A stretch of DNA of 64,000 nt from an uncultured Alphaproteobacteria bacterium. Lineage in GTDB: Bacteria; Pseudomonadota; Alphaproteobacteria; Rs-D84. Below, in pieces: positions 36,364 to 55,604 of this stretch. The position numbers and the translations under genes were made by a program. How positions within the stretch are numbered: the first letter of the stretch is position 1; each line of letters opens with the position of its first letter. The stretch is taken from contig CALXXY010000001.1 of assembly GCA_944392815.1 (NCBI GenBank), positions 133,141 through 197,140 of the forward strand, given 5' to 3'. The notes under the pieces are model-generated. The model was given only the letters and a program-made list of their open reading frames with translations, did not search any database and was not told where the DNA came from.

Positions 36364-36465
36364 TTTGTTCGGAATAACCGCAGCATGGAAACTGGTGCTA
36401 TAATATTTTTATCAATTATGGCGGTGGCATTGCATCGCAATTTCCCGACATCGACATTGTACATT

Positions 36466-36508
36466 TATAAAAAAACGCCCCGTTGGGCGTGTTTTATTTT
36501 ATGGCGGA
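36466..36508. repeat. 41-bp direct repeat (terminator hairpin + 'ttttatggcgga'), copy 1; copy 2 at 36641-36686
   Basis: aaaaaacgccccgttgggcgtgttttattttatggcgga occurs twice, 175 bp apart. Confidence 0.85.
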
Positions 36509-37035
36509 TGGGGAGGGGGGATTCCCTCGCACGATGCATACGCATCGGCTGCGGGGCAACCGTGACGATTTGACTGCGTTGCACTGGTCAAATCTACTTG
36601 TTGTCGAACCTGGGGTTTCTCATCCGCCCCACCGATCCATAAAATAAAAAACGCCCCGTTGGGCGTGTTTTATTTTATGGCGGAGGTGTAACATTTGACG
36701 GTATTAGATATGATAAATACAGGGTATTTACAGGGAATTTTTGTCTTTTTACCAGCAGCATTTTCGCCCGCCCCGCCACAGTTCCGACACTTTTGCAAAA
36801 AATCCCGCAAAAATAACAGGGAATTTGATTCCCCAGAACAGGGATTTTAGTTTATCATATCAGGTAAAAATTCTCTGCTTGCCTAAATAGCAGTTAAAAC
36901 ACTATATTAATAATGATCGTCTATTACTTGAACCACTAAAAAATATTATGTCAACAGTATATAATATATAATCTTTGTTCTAACTAATGGCAATTATAAT
37001 ATCCTGAATAACCAGTACTATACAATATTATTTAA

Positions 37036-38031
37036 CTATTTTTTTAATTTACATTTGCTGGATTTTACTGTTTCCCATAGTTCTAGTTTATGGTTTTCAA
37101 GTTCATAATCTTTTACCAAATTGCTTAAAAACAGTTCAAACTCCATTAATGTCTCAGCCAGATGTTTTTTGCGTCTAAATAAAGTCCATTTGTTTATTTT
37201 TACGAGGCGTTCAAAACGTTTGGATGTATTTATCAGTGCGTATTCGGGAAATAGCATATTGATGCGTTGCGTTTCAATGGTATAACGACGAACTCCCAGA
37301 AAAAAGTCATATCGGTTATCTGGTGGATAAAAATACACTTTGGCACCTGGTACGTGTTTTATTGCGTTTTGGCCATATTTATGCACAATAGCCATTGACA
37401 ATATAATATCATCACATATAGGCCCCTTGTCCAAATATAATTTTTTTATAATATTGCGTGGCACGCGTTTTAACCGTGGTGCAAGATTGTATTTTTTCAA
37501 AATATCCTGTGCATCACGCACAATAAACAAGCGCCCATGAAAATAACCGCGTTGCGGCAACAAATAGCGCATTTCGTAGTATGCTTTCATTATTTTTTGA
37601 AAGTTATTAAGTCGCCCCTTGAAAATTGGCAAAACCTTGGCACAGGCAACCCGCAGTGTATCATTTGCACACATGATGTTATATAATTTCTTTATGGCGG
37701 CCCTATCTATTATCACATCGGCATCACAATATAGTATAAACCCATTTAATTTACGAACATTTGCAATCTTCCTTTCGGCCACAAGTTTTCCGGCACGCGA
37801 ATGTACGATGCTTAAATGCAAATCTTTACACAATTCCTGAGTTTGTTTATTTTGTATTACCGCCAATGTATTATCAGTGGTTCCATTCAAACAAATGATT
37901 GTTTCAAATTGTACATGCTTATCCAAACGATTTAACGCTTGTTTTAGCGCCAAAAGGGTTGAGAATATTGTATTTTCCTCATTTTTTACTGGAATGCCTA
38001 TTGTTAGCGGTGGTATCATTGCTGTATCCAA
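37036..38031 (-). CDS. Glycosyltransferase family 2-like
   Basis: N-terminal LTIGIPVKNEENTI (GT-A fold start) and a CDADV D.D-like motif. Confidence 0.5.
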   Translation of the reverse strand: MDTAMIPPLTIGIPVKNEENTIFSTLLALKQALNRLDKHVQFETIICLNGTTDNTLAVIQNKQTQELCKDLHLSIVHSRAGKLVAERKIANVRKLNGFILYCDADVIIDRAAIKKLYNIMCANDTLRVACAKVLPIFKGRLNNFQKIMKAYYEMRYLLPQRGYFHGRLFIVRDAQDILKKYNLAPRLKRVPRNIIKKLYLDKGPICDDIILSMAIVHKYGQNAIKHVPGAKVYFYPPDNRYDFFLGVRRYTIETQRINMLFPEYALINTSKRFERLVKINKWTLFRRKKHLAETLMEFELFLSNLVKDYELENHKLELWETVKSSKCKLKK

Positions 38032-38048
38032 GTTACAAAGGTATCTAC

Positions 38049-38669
38049 ATGATTATAGATGATTTCACGCAATATGCAAGTTGTTATGATTTGTTCATTT
38101 TTGATATAAATGGTGTATTAGATAACAATCATGAAGCAAAGGTAAGAACTTTATCTGAAGCGTTCCCAGCATTATCTGATTTGCAAATTTCCAAAATAAA
38201 TATTGGTATGGAACGTGCATACGAAAAAAGCAAGGATAGCCCAACCGCATCTCATATTGTGACCGCGTTTGAAGATAACGGCATTGTAATAGACAGCAAT
38301 AAAGCGGAAGAATTGGCAAACAGATACTATGACCTAAATCGTATCAAGCCAGAAATCACAAATTTTCTAAATCAATTAAGCGAAACAAAGAAAGTATGCT
38401 TGTACACATCTTTATCTAAAGCAAAGGTGGATTATATAACTAGTAGATGCCCACTGTCGTCCAATATATTGGTATTTGCCCGCGAGGAACAAGTGGAATC
38501 AAAGCCGTCTATTAGCAATTTAGAGGCAATTTTGCGCATAACAAACACACCGATTAATCGCGCCGTTTTGTTTGGTGATAATGTCGCAGTTGATATTATG
38601 CCAGCACATCTACTGGGGATTAAGGCCGTTTTAGTTAGCAATTATGTTGATGCGGTCATCAAAGTATAA
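38049..38669 (+). CDS. HAD-superfamily hydrolase-like
   Basis: Motif I FDINGVL (DxDG-like, N variant), motif IV FGDNVAVD. Confidence 0.45.
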   Translation: MIIDDFTQYASCYDLFIFDINGVLDNNHEAKVRTLSEAFPALSDLQISKINIGMERAYEKSKDSPTASHIVTAFEDNGIVIDSNKAEELANRYYDLNRIKPEITNFLNQLSETKKVCLYTSLSKAKVDYITSRCPLSSNILVFAREEQVESKPSISNLEAILRITNTPINRAVLFGDNVAVDIMPAHLLGIKAVLVSNYVDAVIKV

Positions 38670-39469
38670 ATAAATTTTGAAGCATCTGACACATTACCAC
38701 GTATAAAATACGCTGGGGTGTGGTTAGATATATTTTGTATATCTGCAAGTCGTTGCTTCATGATGTGGCGCGTGTCAAAACTATTTTGCGTTTCGGTAAA
38801 GTTATTATACAAAAAGTTCAAGTTGCGAATATCCCTGCTTGCCTCTTCATACAAGTGCCAAAACAGTTTTAACCTGTCCAATTTATAGCAGGTCAATTCT
38901 GTTTCATTTGTAATAATCGGAAAAACGACCAAAGCTAATTTAGCAGATTTTGTACGAATATTAAGTGTGGAATCACAGGCCGTTTTGTTTTTTAAGTTGT
39001 CCTTCGACAATGGACAAGCGGCCACAATAGTCTGGGTTTGACCATCCAATACAAACTTTTCATCGCCAATAAATTCCGCATTTGGCAGTTGTTGCAAGGT
39101 TACAGCCAATGTCGTCTTACCGATGCCAGACATACCACCAATTATGGCAATGGCCTTGTTATTAATCGCAACTGCCGCGCCATGCACCTGATAAAGTCTG
39201 TGTGCCTGTCTTTTTTGTTCTAATAGTGCCCCAACAATCACAATAACAGATCGCAAATCAACATCTGCATCAGTTATTTTGATATTATTGCCCCGCCAAT
39301 CAAAGGAGGCCCCACGAGAAATCGTCATCTCTGCGGGCTGTGCTGATTTGGTTATACATGCCCCCGGTATATATTCACGTAAAAAATAATGTGCAGATAA
39401 TGTATCATATACGCTTTTTAGCGTATCACATACAACACATTGTCCCAAAGATCGTATAGCTATTCGCAT
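38642..39469 (-). CDS. HprK-related P-loop kinase-like protein
   Basis: HGAAVAINNKAIAIIGGMSGIGKTTLAVTL...EFIGDEKFVLDG resembles the HPr kinase C-terminal P-loop domain. Confidence 0.45.
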   Translation of the reverse strand: MRIAIRSLGQCVVCDTLKSVYDTLSAHYFLREYIPGACITKSAQPAEMTISRGASFDWRGNNIKITDADVDLRSVIVIVGALLEQKRQAHRLYQVHGAAVAINNKAIAIIGGMSGIGKTTLAVTLQQLPNAEFIGDEKFVLDGQTQTIVAACPLSKDNLKNKTACDSTLNIRTKSAKLALVVFPIITNETELTCYKLDRLKLFWHLYEEASRDIRNLNFLYNNFTETQNSFDTRHIMKQRLADIQNISNHTPAYFIRGNVSDASKFIYTLMTAST

Positions 39470-40536
39470 ATTATAGATTTATAAAATTCCAGTAATTTAT
39501 TTGTCTGTTTTTTGACATTCCAATTATTAACCGCTTCAAACTCTGCATTTTTTGCAATCTTTGTTCGCTTCACTTCATTAGATAAAAGTTCCGTGATTGC
39601 ATTTGATAATGCTTTTACGTCTTTTGGTGGCACCAACAGCGCATTATAGTCATGCTTGGCAAAATCAACCATGCCGGCGCAATTCGTTGTTATGATAGCA
39701 CATCCACACATTGCCGCCTCTAACATTGTGGTTAAAACGCCTTCTTTGGCACTGGATGGACATGCAAAAATTTTGGCTCGGTTATAATAATTTATTAATT
39801 CCTGAGTGGATAGATTTTTGTAATGATGAGCATGTGGATATTTTGCGACAATATCTTCTAGTGGTCCCGCCCCCACAACAACTAAATTAAAGTTGTTTGT
39901 ATTTGTCGTTTCTAATAATTCCAAAATACCCTTATGCGGATATAAACGCCCAACAAATAAAACATCAATGTCACGTTCTTGATGCATATTTTTAAATATT
40001 GAACTATCAACCCCGTTGTGTACAACAGATATGGGACGACGCAAAGATTTTATATTCGTTCCCCATGCATCTTTTACACTTTCAGAAACCGCCAGCAGTC
40101 CTGTCGCATTATATAATGCAATTTCCATTAAATTATCAAAATACTCTGGCGTACCGTGTAAATGGACAACTGTCTTATAACGATCGGGGATAAACAACGC
40201 ATCTGTTGTATTATGGATAACGACAATATCAAATTTCTCTGTGTTGCCGGCATAAAAATATTCAGCCGCATATTTACCAAATAAATATGATTCTATATTA
40301 ATATCTGTCCACGTATCCCCTGTTTGTGTCGGCACCCGCAGGGGCAGTTCAACCAGTTTTACAGACGGATGCGATACGATAAATTCGTCAAAAATTCTAG
40401 ACCGCTGACCTACATCAGCGGTTAGTACAGTAATATTGTGTCCTTGACTTACAAATTCGGCACACTGATTCAGGGCAATTACCTCGGCACCGCCGATATA
40501 ATACCCCAATCTGTAGTAGTGAATCAGTATGTTCAT
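39460..40536 (-). CDS. Glycosyltransferase family 4
   Basis: GT-B C-terminal motif ...EGVLTTMLEAAMCGCAIITT... Confidence 0.55.
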   Translation of the reverse strand: MNILIHYYRLGYYIGGAEVIALNQCAEFVSQGHNITVLTADVGQRSRIFDEFIVSHPSVKLVELPLRVPTQTGDTWTDINIESYLFGKYAAEYFYAGNTEKFDIVVIHNTTDALFIPDRYKTVVHLHGTPEYFDNLMEIALYNATGLLAVSESVKDAWGTNIKSLRRPISVVHNGVDSSIFKNMHQERDIDVLFVGRLYPHKGILELLETTNTNNFNLVVVGAGPLEDIVAKYPHAHHYKNLSTQELINYYNRAKIFACPSSAKEGVLTTMLEAAMCGCAIITTNCAGMVDFAKHDYNALLVPPKDVKALSNAITELLSNEVKRTKIAKNAEFEAVNNWNVKKQTNKLLEFYKSIICE

Positions 40537-40544
40537 GATTGCTT

Positions 40545-41012
40545 CTATATTTTACGCACAATTGGCATAACATTTTGCTCAAAATATTCGCGTTGGGCTG
40601 GGAATCCAATTATCTTTTCGTCAACCAATGCCTCGGAATCCAGCCATACAACCTTTACTTTATCCTCACGTTCTTCGCAAAAATCCAGCACAGCATCACT
40701 CGGCACCTTTGCCACAAAGAATATATGAGCCTCGTTATATGCACCACGTTTTTCAATTTTTTGCTCTGCAACTTTAAATTTATATGGTTCTTTTACTTGT
40801 TGTGCCAGTCCAACCATAAATTCTGCTGTTTTACCAAGTTCTTCACGTAATTCGCGGGTTAAAGCCTGTTCCGCGGTAGTTTCGCCGTCATCAAATCGTC
40901 CGCCAATCGTACCATAGGCACCCGGTGCATATTCCAAAATGGCAATTTGCTTTTTATCGCCAACTATGCGTACTGGAATAATATATGCCGCATAACTAAT
41001 ATCTTTGATCAT
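40545..41012 (-). CDS. NUDIX hydrolase
   Basis: Nudix box GGRFDDGETTAEQALTRELREELG. Confidence 0.75.
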   Translation of the reverse strand: MIKDISYAAYIIPVRIVGDKKQIAILEYAPGAYGTIGGRFDDGETTAEQALTRELREELGKTAEFMVGLAQQVKEPYKFKVAEQKIEKRGAYNEAHIFFVAKVPSDAVLDFCEEREDKVKVVWLDSEALVDEKIIGFPAQREYFEQNVMPIVRKI

Positions 41013-41506
41013 TTTTCTCTCCTTGTATTATATAAAATTTCTAAACTTTTTATGTCTGTTGCTGATTTTATCACAGATTGCAATGAATCTAAATCACTTT
41101 CGTATTCTTCATTATTATCCGGGGTATGTATCAGATTACTTGGTGCGTATTTTTCCCACGGGGTACAATATTTATTACGAATATATTTTTTTATTTGTGG
41201 TCCTGTTGCCAGTGCATTGTATCCCTCTACAATAACCAATAAATGATCCCTGCCAGTACGGTCTGGACCTAATTGATAATTTATTGTCGCATCTTTCCAG
41301 TCTTGTGTCATCTCCGTTTTATAATCTGGTGCCAGCACGGGCTGATAACCTATTAACATATCATAGGTCATCTTAAACCTTGCAGAGACTAAAACAGACA
41401 AATTCCGTGACTGTAATTGCTTATAAAACTCAAATCTTGCGCGAAAAGTCCGTAAACTCAGTTGCAGAGCATCTGGTTTTAATAGAAAAAGAGTTTTTTC
41501 TAACAT
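41009..41506 (-). CDS. Divergent nucleoside-diphosphate-kinase-like protein
   Basis: KTLFLLKPDA (cf. NDK ERTFIMIKPDG), LVIVEGYNALATG, NLIHTPD (cf. NIIHGSD, catalytic His). Confidence 0.4.
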   Translation of the reverse strand: MLEKTLFLLKPDALQLSLRTFRARFEFYKQLQSRNLSVLVSARFKMTYDMLIGYQPVLAPDYKTEMTQDWKDATINYQLGPDRTGRDHLLVIVEGYNALATGPQIKKYIRNKYCTPWEKYAPSNLIHTPDNNEEYESDLDSLQSVIKSATDIKSLEILYNTRREK

Positions 41507-41620
41507 ATATTATCCCTATGACGCAGATAAGGCTAACACATTGTTTTTATTTGTCAAATACTTCTATAAATCGTTGCGTGGTGTAAAATTGCTTGGTAAT
41601 ATTGCAGGAAAGGGGTAAAA

Positions 41621-42730
41621 ATGAAAGTTGCTATATTTTGCGACTATCTGCATTCGTTCGGCGGCACAGAATACTATAATGCAACCTTAGCAATGGAATT
41701 AAAAAAACGCGGTATAGATGTGCGTGTATTTGTATGTGAAAAGCCGCAAAATTTATATTGGTTTGACCGCTTGCAAAAACAAGGTATCACAACATACGCT
41801 CCAGAGCGTTTTCGCGAAAACCGTGATGACCACACTATAGATGCCGAATTTGCTGCCGATATTATGGACGAGTTTATTGCATGGGCACCCGATGTTATAC
41901 ATGCCAGCCCCGCTGCAAACATGCTGGGCGCATACATAAAACATAAAAAAGCCCCCCATCTGCCGATTGTGGCAACAGAACATACAACACCCAGCCCAGA
42001 TTCTGCTTTTTGGTATCCTGTGCACTTTGATAAAATTTTGAAAAACATAGATGCTTTTGTGGCGACCTGTAAGGCATCTGTAAATGGCATCAGACAATTT
42101 CATAAATTCCGTGGCCCTATACACATAATACCACACTTTATAAACAAGCCGCTTTTATATAGCACTCGGCGCATACCAAATTCGGTTGCTTGCATTGCCC
42201 GAATGTCACCAGAAAAGGGTATCGGTGTTTTACTGGTGGCATGGAAAAGCGTTATTAAACAAGTACCAGATGCAAAATTATACTTATACGGACACGGTCG
42301 TGCCAAGCTATATTTTGAACGTCTGGCACTATCTTTGGGACTGGGAAACACTGTTCGTTTTGCAGGCGTATTTGATCCACGTCGTGGTCCAAGTGCCATT
42401 GCTGGCAAGCATGACATATTCGTACAACCGTCCTTATTTGAAAGCATCCCTACATCGCTTATTGAACTAGCCTTGCTAGGCAAACCTGTAATTGCCACGG
42501 ATGTTGGTGGTGTTAGGGAGTTAATAAACAATAAAACAGGTGTTTTAATAAAAAGCGCATCAACAGACGTATTATCCAAAGCCATTGTGCAGTTATTGCA
42601 TGATAAAGAACGTCAAGCTGTGTTGGCGAAACAACTGCAACAATCTGTCGCTAATAAATATGACCTAAATGCCAATATTGATGCTATGATCAAGTTGTAT
42701 CAAGATGTTATACAAGCACAGAGCAAGTAA
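41621..42730 (+). CDS. Glycosyltransferase family 4
   Basis: FGGTEYYNATLA N-terminus; ESIPTSLIELALLGKPVIATDVGGVRELI (the E-X7-E region). Confidence 0.75.
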   Translation: MKVAIFCDYLHSFGGTEYYNATLAMELKKRGIDVRVFVCEKPQNLYWFDRLQKQGITTYAPERFRENRDDHTIDAEFAADIMDEFIAWAPDVIHASPAANMLGAYIKHKKAPHLPIVATEHTTPSPDSAFWYPVHFDKILKNIDAFVATCKASVNGIRQFHKFRGPIHIIPHFINKPLLYSTRRIPNSVACIARMSPEKGIGVLLVAWKSVIKQVPDAKLYLYGHGRAKLYFERLALSLGLGNTVRFAGVFDPRRGPSAIAGKHDIFVQPSLFESIPTSLIELALLGKPVIATDVGGVRELINNKTGVLIKSASTDVLSKAIVQLLHDKERQAVLAKQLQQSVANKYDLNANIDAMIKLYQDVIQAQSK

Positions 42731-42731
42731 T

Positions 42732-43910
42732 ATGAAACAATATATTTATGCTTCTAATCGCTACAAACGTTTTTTTGCAAAGTCTATAACTGGCATAAAA
42801 TTCATGCGTTCTTTGCACGTACAAGCCATAGATAATGCCTCTATCATAATTGAACCAGACACGCATCGTTTTGGTGTGTTTGATGCAAAAGGTGCACTTG
42901 TGCAAGATTCACTGCAATTACGCAATAAAATTGTGCAAAGGGCACCGAAATTTATATCGCCGACCAAAATTTTAGATATAGAGGCGGTGTATATAGGAAC
43001 CCTAGAGGACCATTTTGGACATTTCTTATTGGAACACACAAACCGCTTGTACCCCGTTTTGCATATTAAATATAAGCATATGAAATACGTCATATTAAAC
43101 AACAGAAATCTGCCAAAAGTATCAGACTTTGTGTATGAATTTCTGCAAATACTTGGCATCAATGAATCCGACATTTTTATAATAAATGATAATGTAAAAA
43201 TAAAACGATTATATATACCCCCAGTAGCATTTGAAATACCCAATAAATCTTCATCTGCATTTTGTAAAACATTTGATGCCGCTGCGGCGTACGCACAACC
43301 AGCGCACCGGATTAAAAAAGTTTATGTATCCAGGGAACGTTTGTCGGAGCGCGCTACATTTGGCGAACAACAAATACGACAACTATTTGAAAGGAATGGA
43401 TTTACTGTTATTTATCCAGAACAATTGTCTTTGTATGAGCAAATCTGTTATATGAAACATTGCAAATGCCTAGCTGGCATTGCTGGTTCTGCTTTGCATT
43501 TATCGCTATTTATGCCCAAGGGCAGCAAAGTAATACAAATTAAACGCAATAAACTGCTGGCAGACAATGCAAGCACACAGTATTTGTTGTGTAAAACTAA
43601 ACATTGCGACTTTGTTTTGGTGGATTGTGCGTGTGAAATCTTACCTACACATCACTGGTCGGAATTTCCTCAGATAATAGGTTCAACCAAATATTTAAAA
43701 CAGTTTTTAAGAGATTGTCAATTTAATTATACCGCCCAAGACCTTAGTTGTGATAAATCTATTCGTAAAAAATACCGCCACGCCTTTCGTGCAAAAGGTG
43801 GATTTATTCGCTATCAAATAAAACGCACTCTTGTTTATGTTTTGCCACACATGATGCCCACAAAACGATATAAAAATCGTATGCGTCGTTGGTTAAATAC
43901 GCATCTATGA
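42732..43910 (+). CDS. DUF563/GT61-like glycosyltransferase
   Basis: FGHFLLEHTNRLYPV motif typical of the DUF563 capsular/glycan transferases. Confidence 0.45.
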   Translation: MKQYIYASNRYKRFFAKSITGIKFMRSLHVQAIDNASIIIEPDTHRFGVFDAKGALVQDSLQLRNKIVQRAPKFISPTKILDIEAVYIGTLEDHFGHFLLEHTNRLYPVLHIKYKHMKYVILNNRNLPKVSDFVYEFLQILGINESDIFIINDNVKIKRLYIPPVAFEIPNKSSSAFCKTFDAAAAYAQPAHRIKKVYVSRERLSERATFGEQQIRQLFERNGFTVIYPEQLSLYEQICYMKHCKCLAGIAGSALHLSLFMPKGSKVIQIKRNKLLADNASTQYLLCKTKHCDFVLVDCACEILPTHHWSEFPQIIGSTKYLKQFLRDCQFNYTAQDLSCDKSIRKKYRHAFRAKGGFIRYQIKRTLVYVLPHMMPTKRYKNRMRRWLNTHL

Positions 43911-44146
43911 TAAAAATAATACGCGTATAAAATTGTCGGGATAAACAGTCCTAAAACTTCAAGTCGCGTCAGATAAGTTTTCAAGTCAGCCGTTTTATTT
44001 TGGTGATTACAGACATCGGTTGAAAACAAAATCGTTTTTTGGTATTCTGATAGTGAAAGGAGTCGAACTGGCACGTGCGTGCCATAATTGACCCCTTTTT
44101 TTATTTATGTGAATTTCGCATAAATAATAAAACAAGGAGAGAGGAA

Positions 44147-47286: not shown

Positions 47287-47455
47287 TGCCTACAATTATT
47301 AAAAAACCATTGAATGTGCAAAATTCTCTATCTGAATCCTATTTTATGTAAAATCTTTCTGGGACCCCACCGGGTCCACGTATATCTATTACTCTGCCAA
47401 ATAAATTTAGCAATGATCTATGATGGTGTAATTGCCACTAAACATTAGGTTTATT

Positions 47456-48088: not shown

Positions 48089-48095
48089 CCGTTGT

Positions 48096-49271
48096 TTATT
48101 TTAAACGATCAAACACATAATCAACAGGAGATTCGTATTTATTCGGCATCATAGATGATACAAATCTTCTAACTTCCGGACGAGAATTTAACATATTCTC
48201 TATGATATGACGTTGCAAATCAGGAAACGCCCTGTGTGGTGCTAAAGCTCTGTGACATACTGGACATAATTTTACCAAATTATCCAGTACATCAACCGCA
48301 TCAGAATCATTAGCATATGCAATAACATGATTTACTTCAAAATAATATCTATTGTTTCGTGGCATCAGGAATGAACGATCTTTGATATCATACCGATCAC
48401 CACAACCAACGCATACATCCGCGAAAGTTTCTCTTGCGAATGCAACAATTTTTTGATTTCTGATAGAAAATTTATTTTCTGGCACCACATCAATTGGTTC
48501 ACGAAATTCAAGATCTTGTCTTAAGGCGTTTATTTCATTTGGCGTCAACTCTCTGCCAAGAATCTTTTGACGATAAAAAATCAGACGTTCTTCAAACATG
48601 TGATACGCATGAACTTCACCCAAATTTCTTATATTTACTCTTAAGACATCTGTTTTATATTTATTTATATTCGGGTATCTAGTTATTACGTTTTCGTAAA
48701 ACCATTTCAAATTTATTCTAATTTGAGTATTTCTCTCCCTTTCTCCTGTGGCAAACTGCGGTTGTAATTCTCTAAAGTTTAGGTTCAAACGTTCTATCAA
48801 ATTATTTGAAGACAATAACAGTTTAAAAATATTGTCTACATATCGTGGAGTAGGATTTTTAAGATCCAACGCATATAAGCCACGATTAAAATCTGCGCTT
48901 CCACGCAACAAAAACATTGCCAGAGCAACTTCTTCATCTAGTGGGTAATTAACTGGCAATTTATTCAATAATACGATGATTTTTTCATAAATAGCATTCA
49001 GAAAATCATCCAATGATATGCGTTTGTCATTGACGACAGTTGCAGCTATGGTTGTTGCGTTTATTTGAACAAAATCAATTCCATATTTACGAGTCAGCGC
49101 TTGAGCTGTTTTCTTATGTGAATCCGCTGGCAAAGGTAAAAACTTCGTTATTCTGTACCTGGATTGAATTTCAAAATTTCCGTTTTTTTCATCGGCAGCA
49201 TTGAAAAACGCTACGAAAAGAGTTTCTATCGGCATTTGTAATAATTGACCTATATTCATAACAATCCCCAC
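48096..49271 (-). CDS. HNH nuclease, probable restriction endonuclease of the adjacent MTases
   Basis: C-terminal CVGCG...EVNHVIAYAND...CPVCH HNH motif; start overlaps the MTase stop. Confidence 0.55.
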   Translation of the reverse strand: MGIVMNIGQLLQMPIETLFVAFFNAADEKNGNFEIQSRYRITKFLPLPADSHKKTAQALTRKYGIDFVQINATTIAATVVNDKRISLDDFLNAIYEKIIVLLNKLPVNYPLDEEVALAMFLLRGSADFNRGLYALDLKNPTPRYVDNIFKLLLSSNNLIERLNLNFRELQPQFATGERERNTQIRINLKWFYENVITRYPNINKYKTDVLRVNIRNLGEVHAYHMFEERLIFYRQKILGRELTPNEINALRQDLEFREPIDVVPENKFSIRNQKIVAFARETFADVCVGCGDRYDIKDRSFLMPRNNRYYFEVNHVIAYANDSDAVDVLDNLVKLCPVCHRALAPHRAFPDLQRHIIENMLNSRPEVRRFVSSMMPNKYESPVDYVFDRLK

Positions 49272-50011
49272 TAAATATCATTAAAAATTCTTTTATATGA
49301 CATGTTGTAGAATTTTTCATCCAATTCTACACCTATAAAGTGTCTGTTTTGACGGACACATGCAATACCTGTACTGCCACTACCCATAAATGGGTCTAAC
49401 ACCAAATCCCCGGGGTTTGTTAAGGTTTTTACAAGAAATTCCATCAAACATACAGGCTTCTGGGTTGGGTGCCCCAATCTTTCTTTTCCACTTGGCGATG
49501 GGCATTTGATCTCTGGTCTTAAATATGAGCCACTAGTATTATTAAATGTCCATTTCTTTTTGCCTTTGACACACCATATTGCCAATTCATAATCAGCAAC
49601 GAACCGACTGGACATATTACGTGGCATTGGATTTGGTTTAATCCACCTTATCAAGTCTTTTACAGAGTATCCATGTTGCTCTAACGTTTTTGCTATGGTT
49701 CCGATATTCAAAAAACTATTAAATATAACGATATTACCGCCGTCTTTTAATAATGTATCAGCAATATCTAACCAAGATAATAAGTCAAAGCCTTTATCCC
49801 ATTCACCAAAATCCACCCCCTGTCTTTTAGCAGATTTCATTGTTCCAAAATTATTGCTCTTAGATATGTTATATGGTGGATCTGTAATAATAGCATCAAC
49901 TTTTATGCCTTTCTTAGCTAAATCGGTCATAGCAATCAAACAGTCTCCGTGTATAAGTTGAACGGATTCTTTGTTGAGTAAGCCATTAAAATCCATCTGA
50001 CTATTATTCAT
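49271..50011 (-). CDS. DNA methyltransferase, N6-adenine/N4-cytosine (beta-class order)
   Basis: Motif IV DAIITDPPYN precedes motif I LVLDPFMGSGSTGIA. Confidence 0.8.
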   Translation of the reverse strand: MNNSQMDFNGLLNKESVQLIHGDCLIAMTDLAKKGIKVDAIITDPPYNISKSNNFGTMKSAKRQGVDFGEWDKGFDLLSWLDIADTLLKDGGNIVIFNSFLNIGTIAKTLEQHGYSVKDLIRWIKPNPMPRNMSSRFVADYELAIWCVKGKKKWTFNNTSGSYLRPEIKCPSPSGKERLGHPTQKPVCLMEFLVKTLTNPGDLVLDPFMGSGSTGIACVRQNRHFIGVELDEKFYNMSYKRIFNDI

Positions 50012-51071
50012 CTTCAGCTTTTATTATCTCTTGTGCTATTGCGTTGGCTAATCTAGGCGGCACAGCATTGCCAATCTGTTTTATTATAGACGATTTATTG
50101 CCATAAAAGACAAAGTCATCTGGAAATGATTGGATACGCGCTGCCTCTCGCGGCGTTATAGACCTGTTCAAAAACGGGTGATTATTACGACCATTTGATG
50201 GCGTATCAAATCTGGTAACGATGGTAGGTGACGGTTTGTCTTTTTCAAGACGCCCCCATGTTCCACCAAATGTAGATTTAGTCAAATGCTCTTTTGGTAA
50301 AAACTCTTTGCCTTTTTCTGGTGGAATTAAAGATAACCTGTATATGGCTACATCTGAATGCTTTGTCGCCACATGATTATACAATTTCTTGCTGTTTTTG
50401 CGAAGCTCTTTTTGATAATCACTTTGTGCAGCATTTCTATATTCTGAAATAAAATCTCCTTCACCAGATTCTAGATAAGCTAAATCTGAAATGGCGTCCC
50501 AAACCGAAACCTGTCTTGCTTGTAAATTTTGAACAGGTAGTTTGATTTCGCCCCTTTTTGTACCTATAAATACAGCTCTTCTTCTGGTTTGTGGTACGCC
50601 AAAGTATCGGGCATCCAATACCCCATAATTAACAGTATACCCTTGTCTGTGCGCTTCCTTCAAAATAAGTTTCAGGAAATAACCATTTTCTGTACCAAGT
50701 ATACTTGCAACGTTTTCAATGACAAAATATTTTGGATTAAAGAACTTAGTATATCTAAAAAATTCTTTGAACAAAAAGTTTCTCTCATCTTCTCTGCCAA
50801 GACATTTACCACGTGTTGAAAAACCCTGACATGGGGGCCCCCCAACGATGATATCAATTTTTGCGTCTATTTGTTTTGCGATATCTTTTATATCTAACTT
50901 ACAAATATCGCCTATAAATACCTTTGCATTTGGATTGTTTTTAGCATATGAAGCCGCTATCGTTGGGTCCCACTCCAACCCAGCGACAACATTAAAACGA
51001 CCAGTCTGTTCAAAACCAAGACTCAAACCGCCAACACCGCAAAACAATTCAAACAAATTGAGTTTTTTCAT
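50004..51071 (-). CDS. DNA (cytosine-5)-methyltransferase
   Basis: Motif I LFCGVGGLSLGF, motif IV GGPPCQGFS, motif VI ENV, motif X QIGNAVPP. Confidence 0.9.
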   Translation of the reverse strand: MKKLNLFELFCGVGGLSLGFEQTGRFNVVAGLEWDPTIAASYAKNNPNAKVFIGDICKLDIKDIAKQIDAKIDIIVGGPPCQGFSTRGKCLGREDERNFLFKEFFRYTKFFNPKYFVIENVASILGTENGYFLKLILKEAHRQGYTVNYGVLDARYFGVPQTRRRAVFIGTKRGEIKLPVQNLQARQVSVWDAISDLAYLESGEGDFISEYRNAAQSDYQKELRKNSKKLYNHVATKHSDVAIYRLSLIPPEKGKEFLPKEHLTKSTFGGTWGRLEKDKPSPTIVTRFDTPSNGRNNHPFLNRSITPREAARIQSFPDDFVFYGNKSSIIKQIGNAVPPRLANAIAQEIIKAEDE

Positions 51072-51335
51072 TATTCCTTCCGATAGAAAAACTATACAAG
51101 AATTTTACAAACAAAATCAAGGCGATTTACAACTTTCTATAAGCCCTATTTTTACCCAATGTTACTATTCGGAACACTTTAAGGTACAATAAATCGCAAA
51201 ATCTGTGAATGTTATCCAAATAGGGGTGGATAGTCATTTCTTTTATATATCAGACATTTTGTGTAATAGAGTTTTATCAACTTGACTTTCTGCGCTTTGT
51301 AAGCAGTAATTGCACAACCTTAAAAGGATGTGATT

Positions 51336-51773
51336 ATGGCAAAAATTGAATTACCGACGACATTGGATGAATTACGTGCGATGTCGTTCGCAGATCGGGT
51401 GGCATTATGGGCAAAATACAGTCCATATCCGTTTAAACGGCAAATGCGGTCGCTTTGGTATTATATTCAATGTGACCGCCTAAACCTGCGAATTGAGCAT
51501 AAATATCTAGTAAAAATCCGCAAATACAAAGATGAACCAGAAAAATGCTTAACCAGTGTTCAAAAAAACAAATATAACTTTGTTCCTGGCACAATTCTGA
51601 CCCGATATTTCAAGGGCATAAAACACACCATCTTAGTCAATGATGATGGCAGTTTTTCTTATAACGGCGATAAATATTCCACATTGTCGGGGGTAGCAAC
51701 TAAAATTGCTGGTATGAAAATGTCTGGCAACTTCTTTTTTGGTATAAACAAAAGGTACAAACATGACAATTAA
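51336..51773 (+). CDS. DUF2924 protein (recombinase-associated)
   Basis: LDELRAMSFADRVALWAKYSPYPFKRQMRSLWYYIQ pattern; overlaps the recombinase start; aaagga RBS before the ATG at 51336. Confidence 0.5.
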   Translation: MAKIELPTTLDELRAMSFADRVALWAKYSPYPFKRQMRSLWYYIQCDRLNLRIEHKYLVKIRKYKDEPEKCLTSVQKNKYNFVPGTILTRYFKGIKHTILVNDDGSFSYNGDKYSTLSGVATKIAGMKMSGNFFFGINKRYKHDN

Positions 51774-53352
51774 GTGCGCAATTTATACGCGTAAATCAAC
51801 AGAACACGGACTTGAACAAGAATTTAATTCTCTGCAAAACCAAGAAGAGTCCTGCAAAGCATATATTGCATCGCAATCCTTCAACGGCTGGCAATATTAT
51901 AAAACATACAGCGATGCGGCGATATCTGGTGGGACTATGGAACGCCCGGCACTAAAACAAATGTTGGATGATATGGCACACGGTTTAGTAAATACGGTGG
52001 TCGTTTACAAAGTTGATCGATTATCGCGTTCAATCTTGGATTTCCACAATATGATGAAATATTTTGAAAGATACGGTGCAAATTTTGTATCCATTACTCA
52101 GTCATTTGATACCAGTACATCAATGGGGAAACTGACACTGAATATGTTGCTGTCATTCGCCCAATTTGAACGCGAGGTGTCATCGGAACGTGTGCGTGAT
52201 AAAATCCGTGCTAGTAAGGCCAAGGGTCTGTGGATGGGCGGTAATCCGCCACTGGGGTATGATGTGATAGATAAAAAGTTGATCCCGAACACGGCTGAGG
52301 CCACAAACGTTCGGAAACTTTTTGAAAAGTATCTGGAACTGCAATCTGTAAATGCATTAACAGAATATGTCGCGGCGCACAAAATATATGCCAAACAATG
52401 GACAACCGCCAAAGGTATTATCAAAGGTGGTCGTCCCATTGCAAAAATGAGTATGCACCGTATCCTGCGGGATAAGATTTACATCGGTCAAATTGAAAAC
52501 AAAAAAGAAGGCACTTTTGCCAAAGGCGAACACGAACCAATAATTCCCGAAGAACTGTTTAATCGTGTTCAGGTTGCGCTGGCTAATAATTCCAACAACA
52601 AATCACCCAGCACGCGTGCACCGAATATACTAACTGGCAAACTGTTTAATCATAATGGTGTTAAATTTATAAATCAACGCACAAGTGGTAAAGGCAAAAA
52701 GACCGCGTATTATTATGCAACCAAAGGCTTCTATCTGACCGCGACACGCGTGGATGCAATCGCCATAAAAACAATAACGGATTTTCTGAATAGCGATATG
52801 TCGAATTTGCCTATAAACTTGGCCACCATATTAAAACGAATTGATATTACAAATATGACATATACACAAAAACGAGATTTGATTCAATCGCTGGTTGAAA
52901 AGGTTGTATATTCGCAGGAACAATTGATTTATACGCTTACGACCGATGCTACAAAATTGCAACAATTTGTATCCGAAAATTATGTAAATCAAAATACAGA
53001 TAAAATGGAATACATAATTGGAGACAATAGCGTCACAATTACCGAAAAAGTATTTCTTCGTAAATATGTGAATACAGTATACGACCGTGGCAAAAATGGG
53101 GTATTAAATGTCACCGACAACAACCATCTGATTCTGAAAGCCTTTGCCACCGCATGGAAATATCGTGAATTATACGAACAAGATGGTAATGTAGATAATA
53201 TTATTCGCTACCTGCACACTTCGCCACGCCAATTCTACCGTTATCTGGGCATCGCATACATGACCCCAGACAATGTCAACGAAATCTTGTCTGGGAAATT
53301 AAAAATTAATGTTAATGATTTATTTCGGATTGCGAGAGAAAACGATTTTTAA
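51763..53352 (+). CDS. Large serine recombinase (integrase)
   Basis: IYTRKST (catalytic Ser), VDRLSRS, recombinase domain KAKGLWMGGNPPLGYD; 529 aa. Confidence 0.85.
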   Translation: MTIKCAIYTRKSTEHGLEQEFNSLQNQEESCKAYIASQSFNGWQYYKTYSDAAISGGTMERPALKQMLDDMAHGLVNTVVVYKVDRLSRSILDFHNMMKYFERYGANFVSITQSFDTSTSMGKLTLNMLLSFAQFEREVSSERVRDKIRASKAKGLWMGGNPPLGYDVIDKKLIPNTAEATNVRKLFEKYLELQSVNALTEYVAAHKIYAKQWTTAKGIIKGGRPIAKMSMHRILRDKIYIGQIENKKEGTFAKGEHEPIIPEELFNRVQVALANNSNNKSPSTRAPNILTGKLFNHNGVKFINQRTSGKGKKTAYYYATKGFYLTATRVDAIAIKTITDFLNSDMSNLPINLATILKRIDITNMTYTQKRDLIQSLVEKVVYSQEQLIYTLTTDATKLQQFVSENYVNQNTDKMEYIIGDNSVTITEKVFLRKYVNTVYDRGKNGVLNVTDNNHLILKAFATAWKYRELYEQDGNVDNIIRYLHTSPRQFYRYLGIAYMTPDNVNEILSGKLKINVNDLFRIARENDF

Positions 53353-53357
53353 TGAAA

Positions 53358-55286
53358 TTATTTTTTTAGGATATTGTAATATTGATCCTCAAGATATTGT
53401 ATGCCATCTTCTTTATCAATATGACTATTTAACATTTGTTTCATGTTAAATAAAGCTTGCTCGTTTTCATTTAAAATATCAGCCCATGTTTTTATATATA
53501 ATCTTTTATTTGGTGTGTCTTGTACACCATAATTTATAAAACCTGTTTTCTTATTTTCTATTTCTTTTTGAGCTTCCAGTTTAATTTTAGAAGAAACCAC
53601 AATTATATCCATTTCGTATTTATCAAACTGAGCATTTGACGTAATAGTGTTGTAGTATTTTTTAATTTGAGTAACTTCATCAAATCCTATATCAACACTA
53701 GGTCTTTTCAACTCAACTATTAGTGCTTTCGGAGCATCGCCAGAAAAACCTTTTCTAGCAAAAAATAAATCGGGTATATACTCTCCTCCAACAATATCAC
53801 CCTGACAAGCAAAATCTTTTAAACTATCGCGCAATTCTTTTATAATCGTGCTAAAAGCATTATCCGAAGCTAAAAAATTAAACCTTTCGCCAAAAATCCA
53901 CGTTTCATTTTCAATAATTTTATGTAATTGGGAACGTTCTTTTATGTTTTTTAAATCACCATATGCTATTTGCCTTAATCCCTCTAAAAATTTTAATCTG
54001 CGTTGTATTGTTGAAGCGGTTTTGATTATTGAATTTAAAGATACCTCTTTTAGTAAATCAGAAAAATCTTGCATTTCTTCAGCGGTTAAATCCATCAGTT
54101 TTTCCAATACGTCTTTAAAATTTTCAGGATCTTTTTGTATAACTAATTGAATAGTATTAACAATGCCCTTTCTGATATATTGCGGTGTAGAACTTTTAAA
54201 TACTGATGGACGAGTAGTATTTAGTTTTATTAGAATTTTATCATAAATACGTTTAGTCTGTTCTTCTGATACGGTTAGTTCACTATCATCATCGTACGGA
54301 TAAATTCCGTCTCGCTTAAGGATCTGGATAATGTCTTCGGATTTTTGCTTATTATGATTGAAAACAAAAGCATTTTTCATTTCAATCGCTTGGTTTTTTA
54401 TATAAGATAATTCTGGGTCTAAATTAGCAACACCTAAACGATTTTCTTTATACGCATTGGCAACCCTATCTGCTGCTACATACACAGAGTGATTTGACGT
54501 TTTCTTGCTATCATCCAATTTATCTTCCAATAGAGTATTCCAACTTGAATCACACCAAAACAAACGATTATTTTCTGGAGTAGTGGTTTTCCAAACAATC
54601 GTCTTCATTTTTACATCTTCATTTGGATTTGGCAAATTGCTAATATCACTTGTAGCTTCAATATGATCAGAAATATCTAGCAGGACACCGTTTAATGTTA
54701 CAGATATTCGTTTATCTTCAAGAATAGTAACAAAAAAACGTTCTAAGGTTTCTTTTAAGTCTTGTTGTGATGGAATTTTTATAGTTTTCCCATTTGCATA
54801 TGCTGTAAAAATAGTCCCTGTAATTGTTTTTATATCAGAAACATCCGCATCGTCTTCTATTTCTGGTTTTAAAGGATCATTGATATTTATAGTAACTCTT
54901 GTAGAATCTTTGTCTGTTTTGGTTTTCCATTCTACAATATTACCTAAAGCAAAACTTTTAAATCTACCTTGTCCATTACGTCCATGTACCAATCGATGGA
55001 AATCGTTTGTTTGTCCGAGCCTTTTGTTTGACTTTCCGAGAGTTAGAAAGGGGTCAACTTCTGTGTCCTCGTTTGGTTTATAAAAACCCTTACCATTATC
55101 TATAACTGTGATTTTATCGACCACCTTTAATTCATTCATGTAGATATTTATATCGATCTTGCTTGCAGATGCATCTAACGAATTATAGATTATTTCTTCA
55201 AGAGCCTCAACTGGATTTAAATTGCTATAATTAGTGTTAATTAATTTAGGATTGGTTCGTACATTAGCAGTTCGTATCTTTGGCAT
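53358..55286 (-). CDS. Uncharacterised GHKL (HATPase_c) ATPase fused to a C-terminal PD-(D/E)xK nuclease-like domain
   Basis: N-box EALEEIIYNSLDA, G1 DNGKGF, G2 GRNGQGRFKS; C-terminus GEYIPDLFF...ALIVELKRP (PD...ExK). Confidence 0.55.
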   Translation of the reverse strand: MPKIRTANVRTNPKLINTNYSNLNPVEALEEIIYNSLDASASKIDINIYMNELKVVDKITVIDNGKGFYKPNEDTEVDPFLTLGKSNKRLGQTNDFHRLVHGRNGQGRFKSFALGNIVEWKTKTDKDSTRVTININDPLKPEIEDDADVSDIKTITGTIFTAYANGKTIKIPSQQDLKETLERFFVTILEDKRISVTLNGVLLDISDHIEATSDISNLPNPNEDVKMKTIVWKTTTPENNRLFWCDSSWNTLLEDKLDDSKKTSNHSVYVAADRVANAYKENRLGVANLDPELSYIKNQAIEMKNAFVFNHNKQKSEDIIQILKRDGIYPYDDDSELTVSEEQTKRIYDKILIKLNTTRPSVFKSSTPQYIRKGIVNTIQLVIQKDPENFKDVLEKLMDLTAEEMQDFSDLLKEVSLNSIIKTASTIQRRLKFLEGLRQIAYGDLKNIKERSQLHKIIENETWIFGERFNFLASDNAFSTIIKELRDSLKDFACQGDIVGGEYIPDLFFARKGFSGDAPKALIVELKRPSVDIGFDEVTQIKKYYNTITSNAQFDKYEMDIIVVSSKIKLEAQKEIENKKTGFINYGVQDTPNKRLYIKTWADILNENEQALFNMKQMLNSHIDKEDGIQYLEDQYYNILKK

Positions 55287-55484
55287 ATATTTTCCTGTTT
55301 TTCAATACTGATTTTATTATTCATTTTATATAAAAGCAATTTATTTTATTATGAAAACTGGCATCGGGTTTTTGGGCAGAGTATATAGTTGTGATGAAAT
55401 TGGGCGGATTGTTGGCAACTGGCGATATACACTGGTAATATCGTCCGCAAAGATCGCCAGAAACGGGGCGAAAAAGAACATCCC

Positions 55485-55511
55485 GTGTGATTGCCACGGG
55501 ATGTCAGATAT
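55485..55511 (-). terminator. Terminator of tRNA-Ser (inside the island end)
   Basis: catcccgtg-gcaatcac-acgggatg followed by ttcttttt on the minus strand. Confidence 0.65.
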
Positions 55512-55514
55512 TAC

Positions 55515-55604
55515 TGGCGGATGGGGAGGGATTCGAACCCCCGGTGGAGTTGCCCCCACAACGGTTTTCAAGACCGTCGCAATCGACCGCTCTGCCACCC
55601 ATCC
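55515..55604 (-). tRNA. tRNA-Ser (TGA)
   Basis: Minus strand ggatgggtggcagagcggtcgattgcgacggtcttgaaaaccgttgtgggggcaactccaccgggggttcgaatccctccccatccgcca; long variable arm. Confidence 0.9.

Follow-up and report, generated by a model that had tools for sequence, protein, structure and literature searches.

A mobile island with a large serine recombinase at the 3' end of a tRNA-Ser(TGA) gene in a gut alphaproteobacterium

Introduction

tRNA genes are classic landing sites of tyrosine integrases; large serine recombinases are an enzyme class rarely linked to tRNA targets. The stretch of DNA analysed here (the window; 64,000 nucleotides of contig CALXXY010000001.1 from an uncultured alphaproteobacterium) contains, at the 3' end of an intact tRNA-Ser(TGA) gene, an AT-rich segment of about 19 kb whose only recombinase is a large serine recombinase (LSR). 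The question raised by this locus is where the segment begins and ends, how it came to adjoin the tRNA gene and what kind of element it represents. We consider it probable that the segment is an 18.8-kb mobile island that was inserted by its own LSR into the last six bases of tRNA-Ser(TGA), in a host of the Candidatus Enterousia group with a reduced genome. Comparison of related sequences defines the boundaries of the island, its empty site, the target specificity of its family and its mosaic structure.

Island boundaries and empty sites

Relatives of the locus were found by looking for contigs with exact matches to the two flanking proteins, HNH and RfbB; all of these are metagenome assemblies, and related loci are cited below by their L numbers. 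Ten contigs belong to the same species, with an identical RfbB protein and right flanks that are 98-100% identical to the window at the nucleotide level; in the island-free contigs L014, L016, L013 and L007, the flanks are 98-99% identical. The site is empty in four of these (L012, L013, L014, L016), occupied by this type of island in another four (L015, L017, L018, L020) and by other inserts in the remaining two (L011, L019). When 36685-55521 is removed from the window, so that 36429-36684 is joined to 55522 onward, the product is colinear with L014, L016, L013 and L007, at 93-98% identity through the junction. Thus, the island-free relatives called for in an earlier, preliminary description of this DNA do exist.

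Island-specific sequence starts after TGGCGGA, and the sequence to the left matches the empty sites. The island occupies 36684-55514 (18.8 kb; unit length 18,837 bp), and its ends are identical to the target over TGGCGG(A) only, that is, 6-7 bp. The GC content is 0.363 for 36685-55514, compared to 0.463 and 0.475 in the left and right flanks, respectively, and the lowest value of any 18.8-kb flank window is at least 0.451, in agreement with the AT-richness previously reported. By these comparisons, the island at the 3' end of tRNA-Ser(TGA) is a horizontally acquired element. The tRNA gene itself is intact according to ARAGORN and Rfam, as had been described, and the only terminator-like hairpin 3' of it (55505-55477, minus strand; terminator scan) is island DNA. 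Both the terminator and the restored tRNA 3' end come from the island side, again as previously proposed. A perfect sigma-70 consensus on the host side (55722-55694) is the predicted promoter driving the tRNA gene.

The left edge of the island has to be redrawn. The preliminary description placed a ~19-kb island at 36502-55530, bounded by an exact 16-bp repeat: the acquired island at tRNA-Ser stands, whereas its true left junction lies 176 bp further in. The repeat is genuine, given that the 16-mer TGGCGGATGGGGAGGG has two exact copies, 36502-36517 and 55515-55530, and no further match when 2 mismatches are allowed, with 0 occurrences expected (100 shuffles). The copy at 36502, however, is not the island boundary because it sits within a tRNA-linked repeat (TLR) of ~175 bp that is also present without the island; the occurrence of the 16-mer within tandem units of island-free contigs identifies this copy as host DNA rather than a duplication of the attachment (att) site. 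A third copy of the tRNA 3' end had been overlooked: a perfect 39-nt repeat (terminator plus TGGCGGA; Table 1) is present twice, so that the tRNA end is represented three times in all.

These observations bear on an alternative interpretation, namely, that the island spans 36518-55514 and that integration itself produced the 16-bp tRNA-end duplication, as tyrosine integrases do. The exact and statistically unexpected 16-mer is compatible with such a history, and classical tRNA islands leave a displaced tRNA fragment (PMC4383910, which describes Islander). Nevertheless, we regard this interpretation as very improbable: the fragment (as a 21-mer), together with its 175-bp unit, occurs in island-free contigs, the GC content of the repeat unit (0.546) is unlike that of the island, the second copy of terminator plus TGGCGGA places the junction 176 bp further in, and the island lacks a tyrosine integrase. 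The true junction duplicates just TGGCGG(A) and does not include a displaced tDNA fragment as defined for Islander, and a core of 6-7 bp fits the sole recombinase, a large serine enzyme, but not the long tRNA-fragment duplication of tyrosine-integrase islands. The possibility that the 19-kb segment represents the original state and was lost by deletion from the island-free contigs can practically be dismissed, because it is favored by the bare presence/absence pattern and nothing more, and would require deletions that recreated a perfect TLR-terminator-tRNA junction independently in several lineages, in the face of the foreign composition of the segment, its own site-specific recombinase with matching att symmetry, and unrelated inserts at the same point (L011, L019, L003).

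Attachment sites and crossover

The two junctions read ...gttttatttta TGGCGGA ggtgtaacatttgac... (attL) and ...gtcagatattac TGGCGGA tggggagggattcgaac... (attR). At the seventh position of the shared motif, any of the four bases (A, T, C, G) can be found in attL of related islands, but attR always has the A of the tRNA, which places the exchange inside TGGCGG. Both island arms are conserved. The P' arm recurs where other islands of the family have their left end (L024:420, L077:1279, L071:2479, L108:2122, L111:2618), and the P arm, with its terminator, adjoins the tRNA in ~30 related islands, which are distributed over three different tRNA-Ser genes. The half-site GTAACATTTGAC of the P' arm is inverted relative to GTCAGATATTAC (55503-55514) of the P arm. 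In the attP reconstructed in silico, the 12-bp inverted half-sites GTCAGATATTAC and GTCAAATGTTAC match at 10 of 12 positions and are 10 bp apart, and the center of symmetry, as read from the sequence, is the GG at 55519-55520, corresponding to tRNA positions 71-72. Inverted half-sites around the crossover are the known attP layout of large serine recombinases, in which directionality needs a non-palindromic crossover dinucleotide; GG qualifies. The in silico sites combine short length, imperfect inverted half-sites, a 2-bp crossover and little identity between attP and attB.

Insertion would involve recombination between the island attP (GTCAGATATTAC-TGGCGGAGGT-GTAACATTTGAC) and the host attB (terminator-TGGCGG-ATGGGGAGGGATTCGAAC), catalyzed by the LSR, probably together with the translationally coupled DUF2924 protein, with the 2-bp crossover most likely at GG, acceptor-stem positions 71-72. 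In this scheme, the island would replace only the discriminator base and CCA of the tRNA and would bring a new terminator, so that the tRNA stays functional.

The recombinase and its DUF2924 partner

The 529-aa LSR starts with a Resolvase domain (Pfam PF00239, residues 6-156, E = 1.5e-39) that contains the serine nucleophile in a YTRKS motif (residues 8-12) and is followed by a Recombinase domain (PF07508, residues 178-275, E = 5.6e-13). The protein matches the phrog_95 integrases (7e-96) and, among solved structures in the PDB, the catalytic domain of TP901-1 integrase (7e-25) and A118 integrase (6e-9; a C-terminal-domain structure, residues 161-323). Neither a tyrosine integrase (Phage_integrase domain) nor a second recombinase was detected among the island open reading frames of at least 100 aa (Pfam).

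The DUF2924 gene is located immediately upstream of the LSR gene, in the same orientation, and the two are paired in 71 of 73 loci (tblastn census). No solved structure matches DUF2924 (best E = 0.79). The AlphaFold model (predicted local distance difference test score, pLDDT, 79.6) is helical in its N-terminal part and ends in a beta domain. This beta domain can be superposed on the MPND DNA-binding domain (E = 0.2, probability 1.0; root-mean-square deviation 1.4 A for 46 columns) and also resembles the C-terminal domain of CcrM. We identify the C-terminal DNA-binding domains of MPND and CcrM as RAMA domains, and a direct comparison of DUF2924 with Pfam RAMA yields a weak independent match (E = 0.022). 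The model points to a DNA-binding accessory protein that could contribute to site choice or directionality. The RAMA domain is a proposed reader of adenine-methylated DNA, and a ParB-fused N6/N4 methyltransferase is also encoded in the island; a link between methylation state and recombination is conceivable.

The recombinase family and its tRNA targets

A family scan that included one genome per species yielded 78 loci, nearly all from Candidatus Enterousia or other uncultured gut Alphaproteobacteria, with a few in Elusimicrobia; relatives of the LSR form more than 100 protein clusters at 83-99% identity. The window flanks are 77-83% identical to metagenome-assembled genomes (MAGs) of this kind, organisms with genomes smaller than 1 Mb (PMC12306168). 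Downstream sequence of at least 3 kb is available for 49 of the loci; in 43 of these, an opposite-strand tRNA gene whose 3' end points toward the LSR lies within 3 kb of the LSR stop codon. Of the six exceptions, five either show a junction with a further island or reach the tRNA after a longer run through further islands: the tRNA is 3.9-8.9 kb away in L024, L041 and L077, and a junction to a further island is present in L044, L058, L024 and L077. In L052, neither a tRNA nor such a junction is present within 9 kb.

The target differs among LSR clusters. The cluster that includes the LSR from the window (67-100% identity) is found at tRNA-Ser genes with the anticodons TGA, GGA and CGA, which have TGGCGGA...AGGGATTCGAAC in common. 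Two clusters at ~60% identity also target tRNA-Ser, two others target tRNA-Tyr, one targets tRNA-Pro(TGG), and the Elusimicrobia cluster targets tRNA-Pro(CGG). As judged from these comparisons, LSR clades track their target, be it Ser, Tyr or Pro. Within a clade, islands occupy different genes of the same specificity: one MAG has same-clade islands at two tRNA-Ser genes (L026, L073), and the island in L071 is 90-92% identical to the window island at the nucleotide level, yet resides at tRNA-Ser(GGA). Islands are often arranged in tandem, with only TGGCGG in common. There are three in a row in L024, where one pair is split by a tRNA-fragment unit, and two in L111, an IMG/VR entry; junctions of the form P arm-TGGCGG-P' arm are found in L024, L063, L095 and L111.

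The tRNA-linked repeat

In a TLR unit of ~170-176 bp, a body of ~110 nt is combined with the tRNA terminator and with the 21 nt that end the tRNA. On contigs without the island (L012, L013, L014, L016, L007), it is present in one or two tandem copies directly 3' of the tRNA, and the terminator sequence that is found at 36470-36501 in the window directly follows the intact tRNA in L012 and L007, where the site is empty. Instances beyond the window include L012 9300-9654, L007 1415-1763, L077 1099-1250 and L067 4342-4505.

The sense strand of the TLR is predicted to fold into a four-way junction (-53.6 kcal/mol, z = -2.78). In an alignment of ten units that includes the diverged L077 and the tRNA-Tyr-linked L067, 94% of the cells pair, and compensatory changes, among them a wholesale hairpin swap between strains, are found in 10 of 42 pairs, compared to 1.9 in shuffles and 2-4 in slid controls; the sample being small and composed mostly of close relatives, this covariation is only suggestive. 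The tRNA-Tyr-linked counterpart shares the motifs GGTTCGAC, TGCCCCGCAG and GCGAGGGAATC with the TLR. In the 140-nt stretch between the terminator copies, Rfam finds nothing at gathering score (best E ~0.02-3, for miRNA, Leu leader and RtT), and ARAGORN detects neither a tRNA nor a tmRNA. Some similarity to the 5' part of tRNA-Ser is apparent (GGATCGGTGG against GGATGGGTGG), but the Tyr-linked TLR in L067 lacks any acceptor complement, which counts against the interpretation of the TLR as a tRNA-Ser pseudogene.

The possibility that the TLR is a scar left by this island family was rejected because, beyond the core, the TLR has nothing in common with the P or P' arms.

Of attB, the TLR retains the core, flanked by the B arm on one side and by 14 nt of the B' arm on the other, and in L056, an island of another clade adjoins a TLR instead of the tRNA, so that the TLR seems to be usable as a secondary attB. 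By this comparison, the TLR is a pre-existing unit that carries an almost complete second attB, and it could act as a spare attB, as a small RNA, or in both ways. One could speculate that attR x attL recombination between neighboring islands would excise a TLR unit, leaving P-core-P' junctions.

The tyrT locus of E. coli reportedly carries tandem 178-bp tRNA-linked repeats (RtT RNA), the units of which end with ~20 nt of the tRNA 3' end. The resemblance to the TLR lies in the tandem arrangement of units of ~175 bp directly 3' of a tRNA gene and in the inclusion of ~20 nt of the tRNA end. Unlike the tyrT repeats, the TLR contains its own terminator and a near-complete recombinase target, and there is no significant match to RtT (Rfam RF00391, 15 bits vs the gathering score of 45, E = 3.2).

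Several side observations concern this locus in other strains. At least five more unrelated inserts are found at the tRNA-Ser/repeat-unit locus, with a gene for a Tlde1-domain protein in L003 and L004, a UvrD-like protein of 1049 aa in L002, LPG_synthase_C in L005, and a 543-aa recombinase plus HNH_3 in L019; the many unrelated inserts mark the locus as a general integration hotspot. At 9684-9712 of L011, from the same species, a different small island with Lactamase_B and unknown genes borders on the tRNA, and 14 nt are duplicated internally (TGGCGGATGGGGAGGG-GCGGATGGGGAGGG), which suggests that insertions at this hotspot also arise by another mechanism. Most relatives have NERD and DUF488 genes between the HNH gene and the repeat unit (e.g., L014 8148-9335). 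These genes are missing in the window (36363-36470) and in L012, except for the last ~45 nt of DUF488, and represent a second presence/absence polymorphism, independent of the island.

Gene content and mosaic architecture

The features of the locus are listed in Table 1. The genes named in the preliminary description (recombinase, DUF2924, terminase, ParB-methylase, restriction-modification (R-M), glycosyltransferases, GHKL) were all recovered with Pfam, PHROGs or PADLOC. The comparisons identify the island as a mosaic of a DUF2924-LSR module next to the tRNA, a phage-derived module of ParB-methylase, DUF5681 and the large terminase subunit (TerL), and exchangeable cargo.

Table 1. Features of the island and its surroundings (positions in the window; MTase, methyltransferase; REase, restriction enzyme)
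Feature	Position	Strand	Basis
Host terminator hairpin 3' of the TLR; with 36502-36508, first copy of the 39-nt repeat	36470-36501	-	Perfect direct repeat 36470-36508/36646-36684
TLR unit, host-side DNA	36502-36684	-	16-mer (36502-36517), structured ~110-nt body, second terminator (36646-36677), TGGCGGA (36678-36684)
attL core TGGCGG, true left junction	36678-36683		Left, empty-site match; right, island-specific
P' arm of the island att site, A GGTGTAACATTTGAC GGTATTAGATATG...	36684-36740	+	Conserved at left ends of related islands
Three ACAGGGWAT repeats, left end of island	36719-36824	+	Motif count
Cargo 1, sugar-modification block	37036-43910		Pfam
Glycosyltransferase GT2	37036-38031	-	Pfam
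HAD	38049-38669	+	Pfam
P-loop protein, 275 aa	38642-39469	-	Pfam
Glycosyltransferase GT1	39460-40536	-	Pfam
Nudix	40545-41012	-	Pfam
NDK-like, 165 aa	41009-41506	-	Pfam
Glycosyltransferase GT1	41621-42730	+	Pfam
Glycosyltransferase GT61	42705-43910	+	Pfam
ParB_N + N6/N4 DNA methyltransferase, backbone	44147-45466	+	Pfam PF02195 + PF01555; phrog_498 2e-127
DUF5681, small-terminase position, backbone	45459-45833	+	Pfam PF18932 2e-21
TerL, backbone	45817-47286	+	phrog_38 7e-88; Pfam Terminase_6C
Cargo 2, 210-aa protein + type II R-M	47456-51071	-	PADLOC, Pfam
Unknown protein, 210 aa	47456-48088	-	
HNH type II restriction enzyme	48096-49271	-	PADLOC REase_II PDLC03514 6e-68
N4/N6 MTase	49271-50011	-	PADLOC MTase_II models; Pfam
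C5 MTase	50004-51071	-	PADLOC MTase_II models; Pfam
DUF2924 partner	51330-51773	+	Pfam PF11149 8e-20; overlaps LSR start by 11 nt
LSR, 529 aa, sole recombinase in island	51763-53352	+	Pfam, PHROGs, PDB
Cargo 3, GHKL protein, 642 aa	53358-55286	-	Pfam HATPase_c_3 PF13589 7e-14; phrog_6203
P arm, with island-borne tRNA terminator 55505-55477 and half-site GTCAGATATTAC 55503-55514	55470-55514	-	Terminator scan, conservation
attR core TGGCGG, complement of tRNA 3' end CCGCCA	55515-55520		Junction comparison
tRNA-Ser(TGA), intact, integration target	55515-55604	-	ARAGORN; Rfam tRNA 57.1 bits
Predicted sigma-70 promoter TTGACA-17-TATAAT, 12/12 consensus, host side, upstream of tRNA-Ser	55694-55722	-	Sequence scan

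In the backbone, the ParB-methylase is present in 27 related loci and is followed by DUF5681 and then TerL in every one (tblastn census), the trio being located upstream of the DUF2924-LSR pair; DUF5681 separates the ParB-methylase from TerL in 28 loci, a position that suggests the role of the small terminase subunit (TerS). An open TerL frame of full length (472-507 aa) is retained, at 38-75% identity, by ~22 related islands; in 5, TerL is truncated or lost. One of these 5 is L071, from a complete 0.96-Mb MAG, in which TerL is truncated and the island also lacks the sugar block. The motif ACAGGGWAT occurs 6 times in the window, compared to 0.54 expected, and 3 of the 6 are clustered at the left end of the island. 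The same motif is found at the left ends of L001, L024, L077, L108 and L111 and adjoins the ParB-methylase gene where no cargo intervenes (L108); these repeats are candidate protein-binding or pac sites.

The cargo is exchanged between islands. The whole sugar block recurs, at 73-81% nucleotide identity, elsewhere in the islands L042 and L092 and, appearing at other positions, behaves as a movable cassette. The R-M cassette, together with the 210-aa gene and the 3' end of TerL (46769-51070), is 95% identical at the nucleotide level to L063 4189-8490, whereas the LSR of L063 is only 60% identical to that of the window and is associated with a different tRNA-Ser gene; this disparity implies recent exchange of the cassette between island families. 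The GHKL protein occupies the same position in L015, L017, L018, L020 and L071. Its Pfam match is confined to the N-terminal HATPase_c_3 domain, PADLOC REase_II hits it weakly, and no solved structure matches it.

A C-terminal PD...ELK motif, noticed in the GHKL protein by eye, is suggestive of a PD-(D/E)xK nuclease.

In 21 related loci, for which the cargo between TerL and DUF2924 was assigned mostly by clustering and reading of the sequences rather than by profile searches, this interval holds only defense-like or surface genes, among them genes for reverse transcriptase (RT), Fic, radical SAM, Hsp70/AAA, NTPase, R-M and autotransporter proteins. No portal, capsid or tail genes were found between TerL and DUF2924 in any of the 21.

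As a side observation, L027 (1872-7513) and L111 (6711-12352) have a three-gene cargo in this interval that encodes an Hsp70-like protein (828 aa), an AAA ATPase (470 aa) and a protein of 584 aa whose N-terminus is J-domain-like, a candidate defense system by sequence reading.

Origin and nature of the island

Insertion of a mobile island by its own LSR remains the explanation that we consider probable and, in extension, we infer a role for DUF2924, present activity and transfer from cell to cell. Several points weigh against it. The exact position of the crossover is a prediction from symmetry and junction comparison. Neither an excised circle nor a free attP was found in IMG/VR, JGI metagenomes or the related loci: the exact attL/attP 22-mer has 0 matches in IMG/VR and related loci, a degenerate attP pattern has 0 in IMG/VR, and its 11 matches in JGI metagenomes are 10 chance hits and 1 tandem-island junction, with no circle. 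The P arm-TGGCGG-P' arm junctions of tandem islands are not simple attP x attB products, so that an extra step is needed. The comparison data come throughout from metagenome assemblies, which are prone to collapsing or misjoining repeats. No recombination directionality factor was identified. Finally, residues 280-529 of the LSR (window 52600-53352) show no Pfam zinc-ribbon match even at E = 10 and contain zero cysteines; with such a C-terminal part of 250 aa, the LSR is not a textbook large serine integrase. The A118 alignment extends into the start of this region, and in the homologous recombinase of phage AcaML1, the segment at the usual zinc-ribbon position is cysteine-free as well. The cysteine-free C-terminal halves suggest a zinc-free variant of the serine-integrase DNA-binding domain.

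The backbone most likely derives from a temperate phage lineage in which cargo took the place of structural genes that lay between TerL and the integration module. This origin is indicated by comparison with phage records, namely, phage WO of Wolbachia, AcaML1, and a 5.4-kb human faecal scaffold in which LSR-DUF2924 lies back-to-back with ParB-methylase-DUF5681-TerL.

The island family could be a phage satellite that is excised by the LSR and packed into the capsids of a helper by its own ParB-methylase, TerS-like protein and TerL, a possibility we entertain only tentatively. A conserved, intact packaging module and no capsid genes in many islands, the small size of the islands (~11 kb in L071, 18.8 kb in the window), the left-end repeats that are conserved beside the packaging genes and could be a pac site, and the labeling of one tandem island pair as viral in IMG/VR are all compatible with this lifestyle, and an integrase and genes that might redirect packaging (TerL, with DUF5681 in the TerS position) are present. 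Known satellite families, however, usually carry TerS or capsid-remodeling genes, not TerL alone. Furthermore, no helper phage was identified, and no domains of a replication module (primase/helicase, ori) or of a helper-sensing, helper-responsive regulator were found in the window island (Pfam, PHROGs), although some relatives (L001, L057) encode an S24 repressor-like protein. IMG/VR and JGI metagenomes provide no virome or circular-form evidence, and a TerL search of IMG/VR for a complete helper-like phage returned just another tandem island pair. In a broader version of this idea, which seems possible but is hardly the expected outcome, DUF2924-LSR would be a dedicated tRNA/tmRNA 3'-end integrase family with clade-specific targets that builds tandem arrays of capsid-less islands with exchangeable defense cargo in gut Alphaproteobacteria with reduced genomes and in some Elusimicrobia; with a working ParB-methylase/TerS-like/TerL module, these would be undescribed 'terminase-only' satellites, with the TLR as a spare attB spacer or small RNA.

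Alternatively, the island could be a decayed, fixed prophage similar to WO or AcaML1 that lost its structural genes and retains the recombinase and the terminase as relics. None of the 19 island proteins matches a structural or lysis family (Pfam, PHROGs), as those of a prophage would, and the same lack of portal, capsid and tail genes in the 21 related intervals, the loss or truncation of TerL in 5 loci, including the close relative L071, and the failure to find an excised form in IMG/VR, JGI metagenomes or related loci all speak for decay. So do the back-to-back modules of the faecal scaffold and the organization of phage WO, where the ParB-methylase/terminase region is at the end of the prophage far from the recombinase (PMC10299305). 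Fixation, however, is at odds with the presence/absence polymorphism within the species between flanks that are 98-100% identical and with the occurrence of the same type of island at three tRNA-Ser genes and in many species. Neutral decay is hard to square with TerL frames that stay open at 38-75% identity in ~22 loci. The 83-99% conservation of the LSR over more than 100 protein clusters and nearly identical cargo cassettes in islands with diverged recombinases also count against this alternative. We therefore consider a fixed, decayed prophage to be unlikely.

Significance

For one serine-recombinase family, the window and the 78 related loci provide base-resolved junctions, natural empty sites and a correspondence between clades and tRNAs, which makes the integration claim directly testable. 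Serine integrases that recognize the nearly universal tRNA 3' end would be attractive tools for genome engineering, given that many bacteria already have the landing pad. The islands also show how bacteria with genomes smaller than 1 Mb still trade restriction, surface-sugar and other defense genes, and pose the question of the role of a terminase in a capsid-less element.

Comparison with known systems

The nearest characterized relative is AcaML1, an inducible phage of Acidithiobacillus caldus that is reported to reside in the tmRNA gene, flanked by a 10-bp repeat (PMC3826726). As in the island, its DUF2924-type protein, Gp4, is encoded directly upstream of Gp3, the 'site specific recombinase large subunit'. 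The island proteins show 38% identity to Gp4 (DUF2924; E = 1e-16) and 39% identity over 423 aa to Gp3 (LSR; E = 9e-104). Both elements target the 3' end of a tRNA or tRNA-like RNA gene and are flanked by a short repeat (10 bp in AcaML1, 6-7 bp here). In contrast to the island, AcaML1 is a complete phage (59 kb) that can be induced and whose host is a gammaproteobacterial acidophile; the island lacks structural genes, targets true tRNAs in a clade-specific manner, forms tandem arrays and carries defense and surface cargo.

The Dehalococcoides ssrA islands, with the serine recombinases DsiB and DsiA (PMC3146451), resemble the present family in the t(m)RNA 3'-end target, the variable cargo, the tandem arrays split by repeats of the target 3' end, the ParB-domain gene in a conserved module and the lack of transfer machinery of their own. 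They differ in encoding a CcrB-like recombinase and a second small serine recombinase instead of DUF2924 (PMC3146451), in a 20-bp repeat with insertion inferred in the T-loop, as opposed to 6-7 bp at acceptor positions 71-72, and in having no terminase module and a cargo of reductive dehalogenases.

Classical tRNA islands of the Islander/TIGER class share with the island the hit in the 3' part of the tRNA, the use of island sequence to restore the gene, an integrase gene at the tRNA-proximal end, the foreign composition and the adaptive cargo, but employ a tyrosine integrase and restore tens of nucleotides rather than the ~4-6 nt restored here. In the TIGER survey, 14 of 297 serine-integrase elements were at t(m)RNA genes, and experimental proof was called for (PMC7192596).

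In phage WO, DUF2924 is reported to be encoded beside the recombinase and the ParB-methylase upstream of the terminase (PMC10299305), and the WO recombinase is 43-44% identical to the LSR over the N-terminal half. WO and the 'WO-like islands' share with the island an alphaproteobacterial host with a reduced genome and capsid-less derivative islands with cargo; the word tRNA has 0 occurrences in the WO genomics paper (PMC9203015). Unlike the family analyzed here, WO-like islands are described as relics flanked by insertion sequence (IS) elements, not as site-specific tandem arrays.

The tycheposons of Prochlorococcus are reported to form tandem arrays at tRNA genes with exchangeable cargo. Of 937 elements of this type, 910 have tyrosine recombinases and 27 an LSR, and some resemble phage-inducible chromosomal islands (PICI) and, like the island, carry a phage packaging gene (bioRxiv 10.1101/2020.12.28.424599). 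They differ from the island in that many have replication modules (none was found in the island) and in belonging to an unrelated phylum and habitat.

The published serine-recombinase precedents that we found, the Dehalococcoides ssrA islands and AcaML1, both target the tmRNA gene. What is new here, as far as sequence comparison defines it, is the combination of true tRNA targets that differ by clade, a crossover at the very 3' end, a DUF2924 partner that is obligate, and an architecture with a terminase but no capsid genes.

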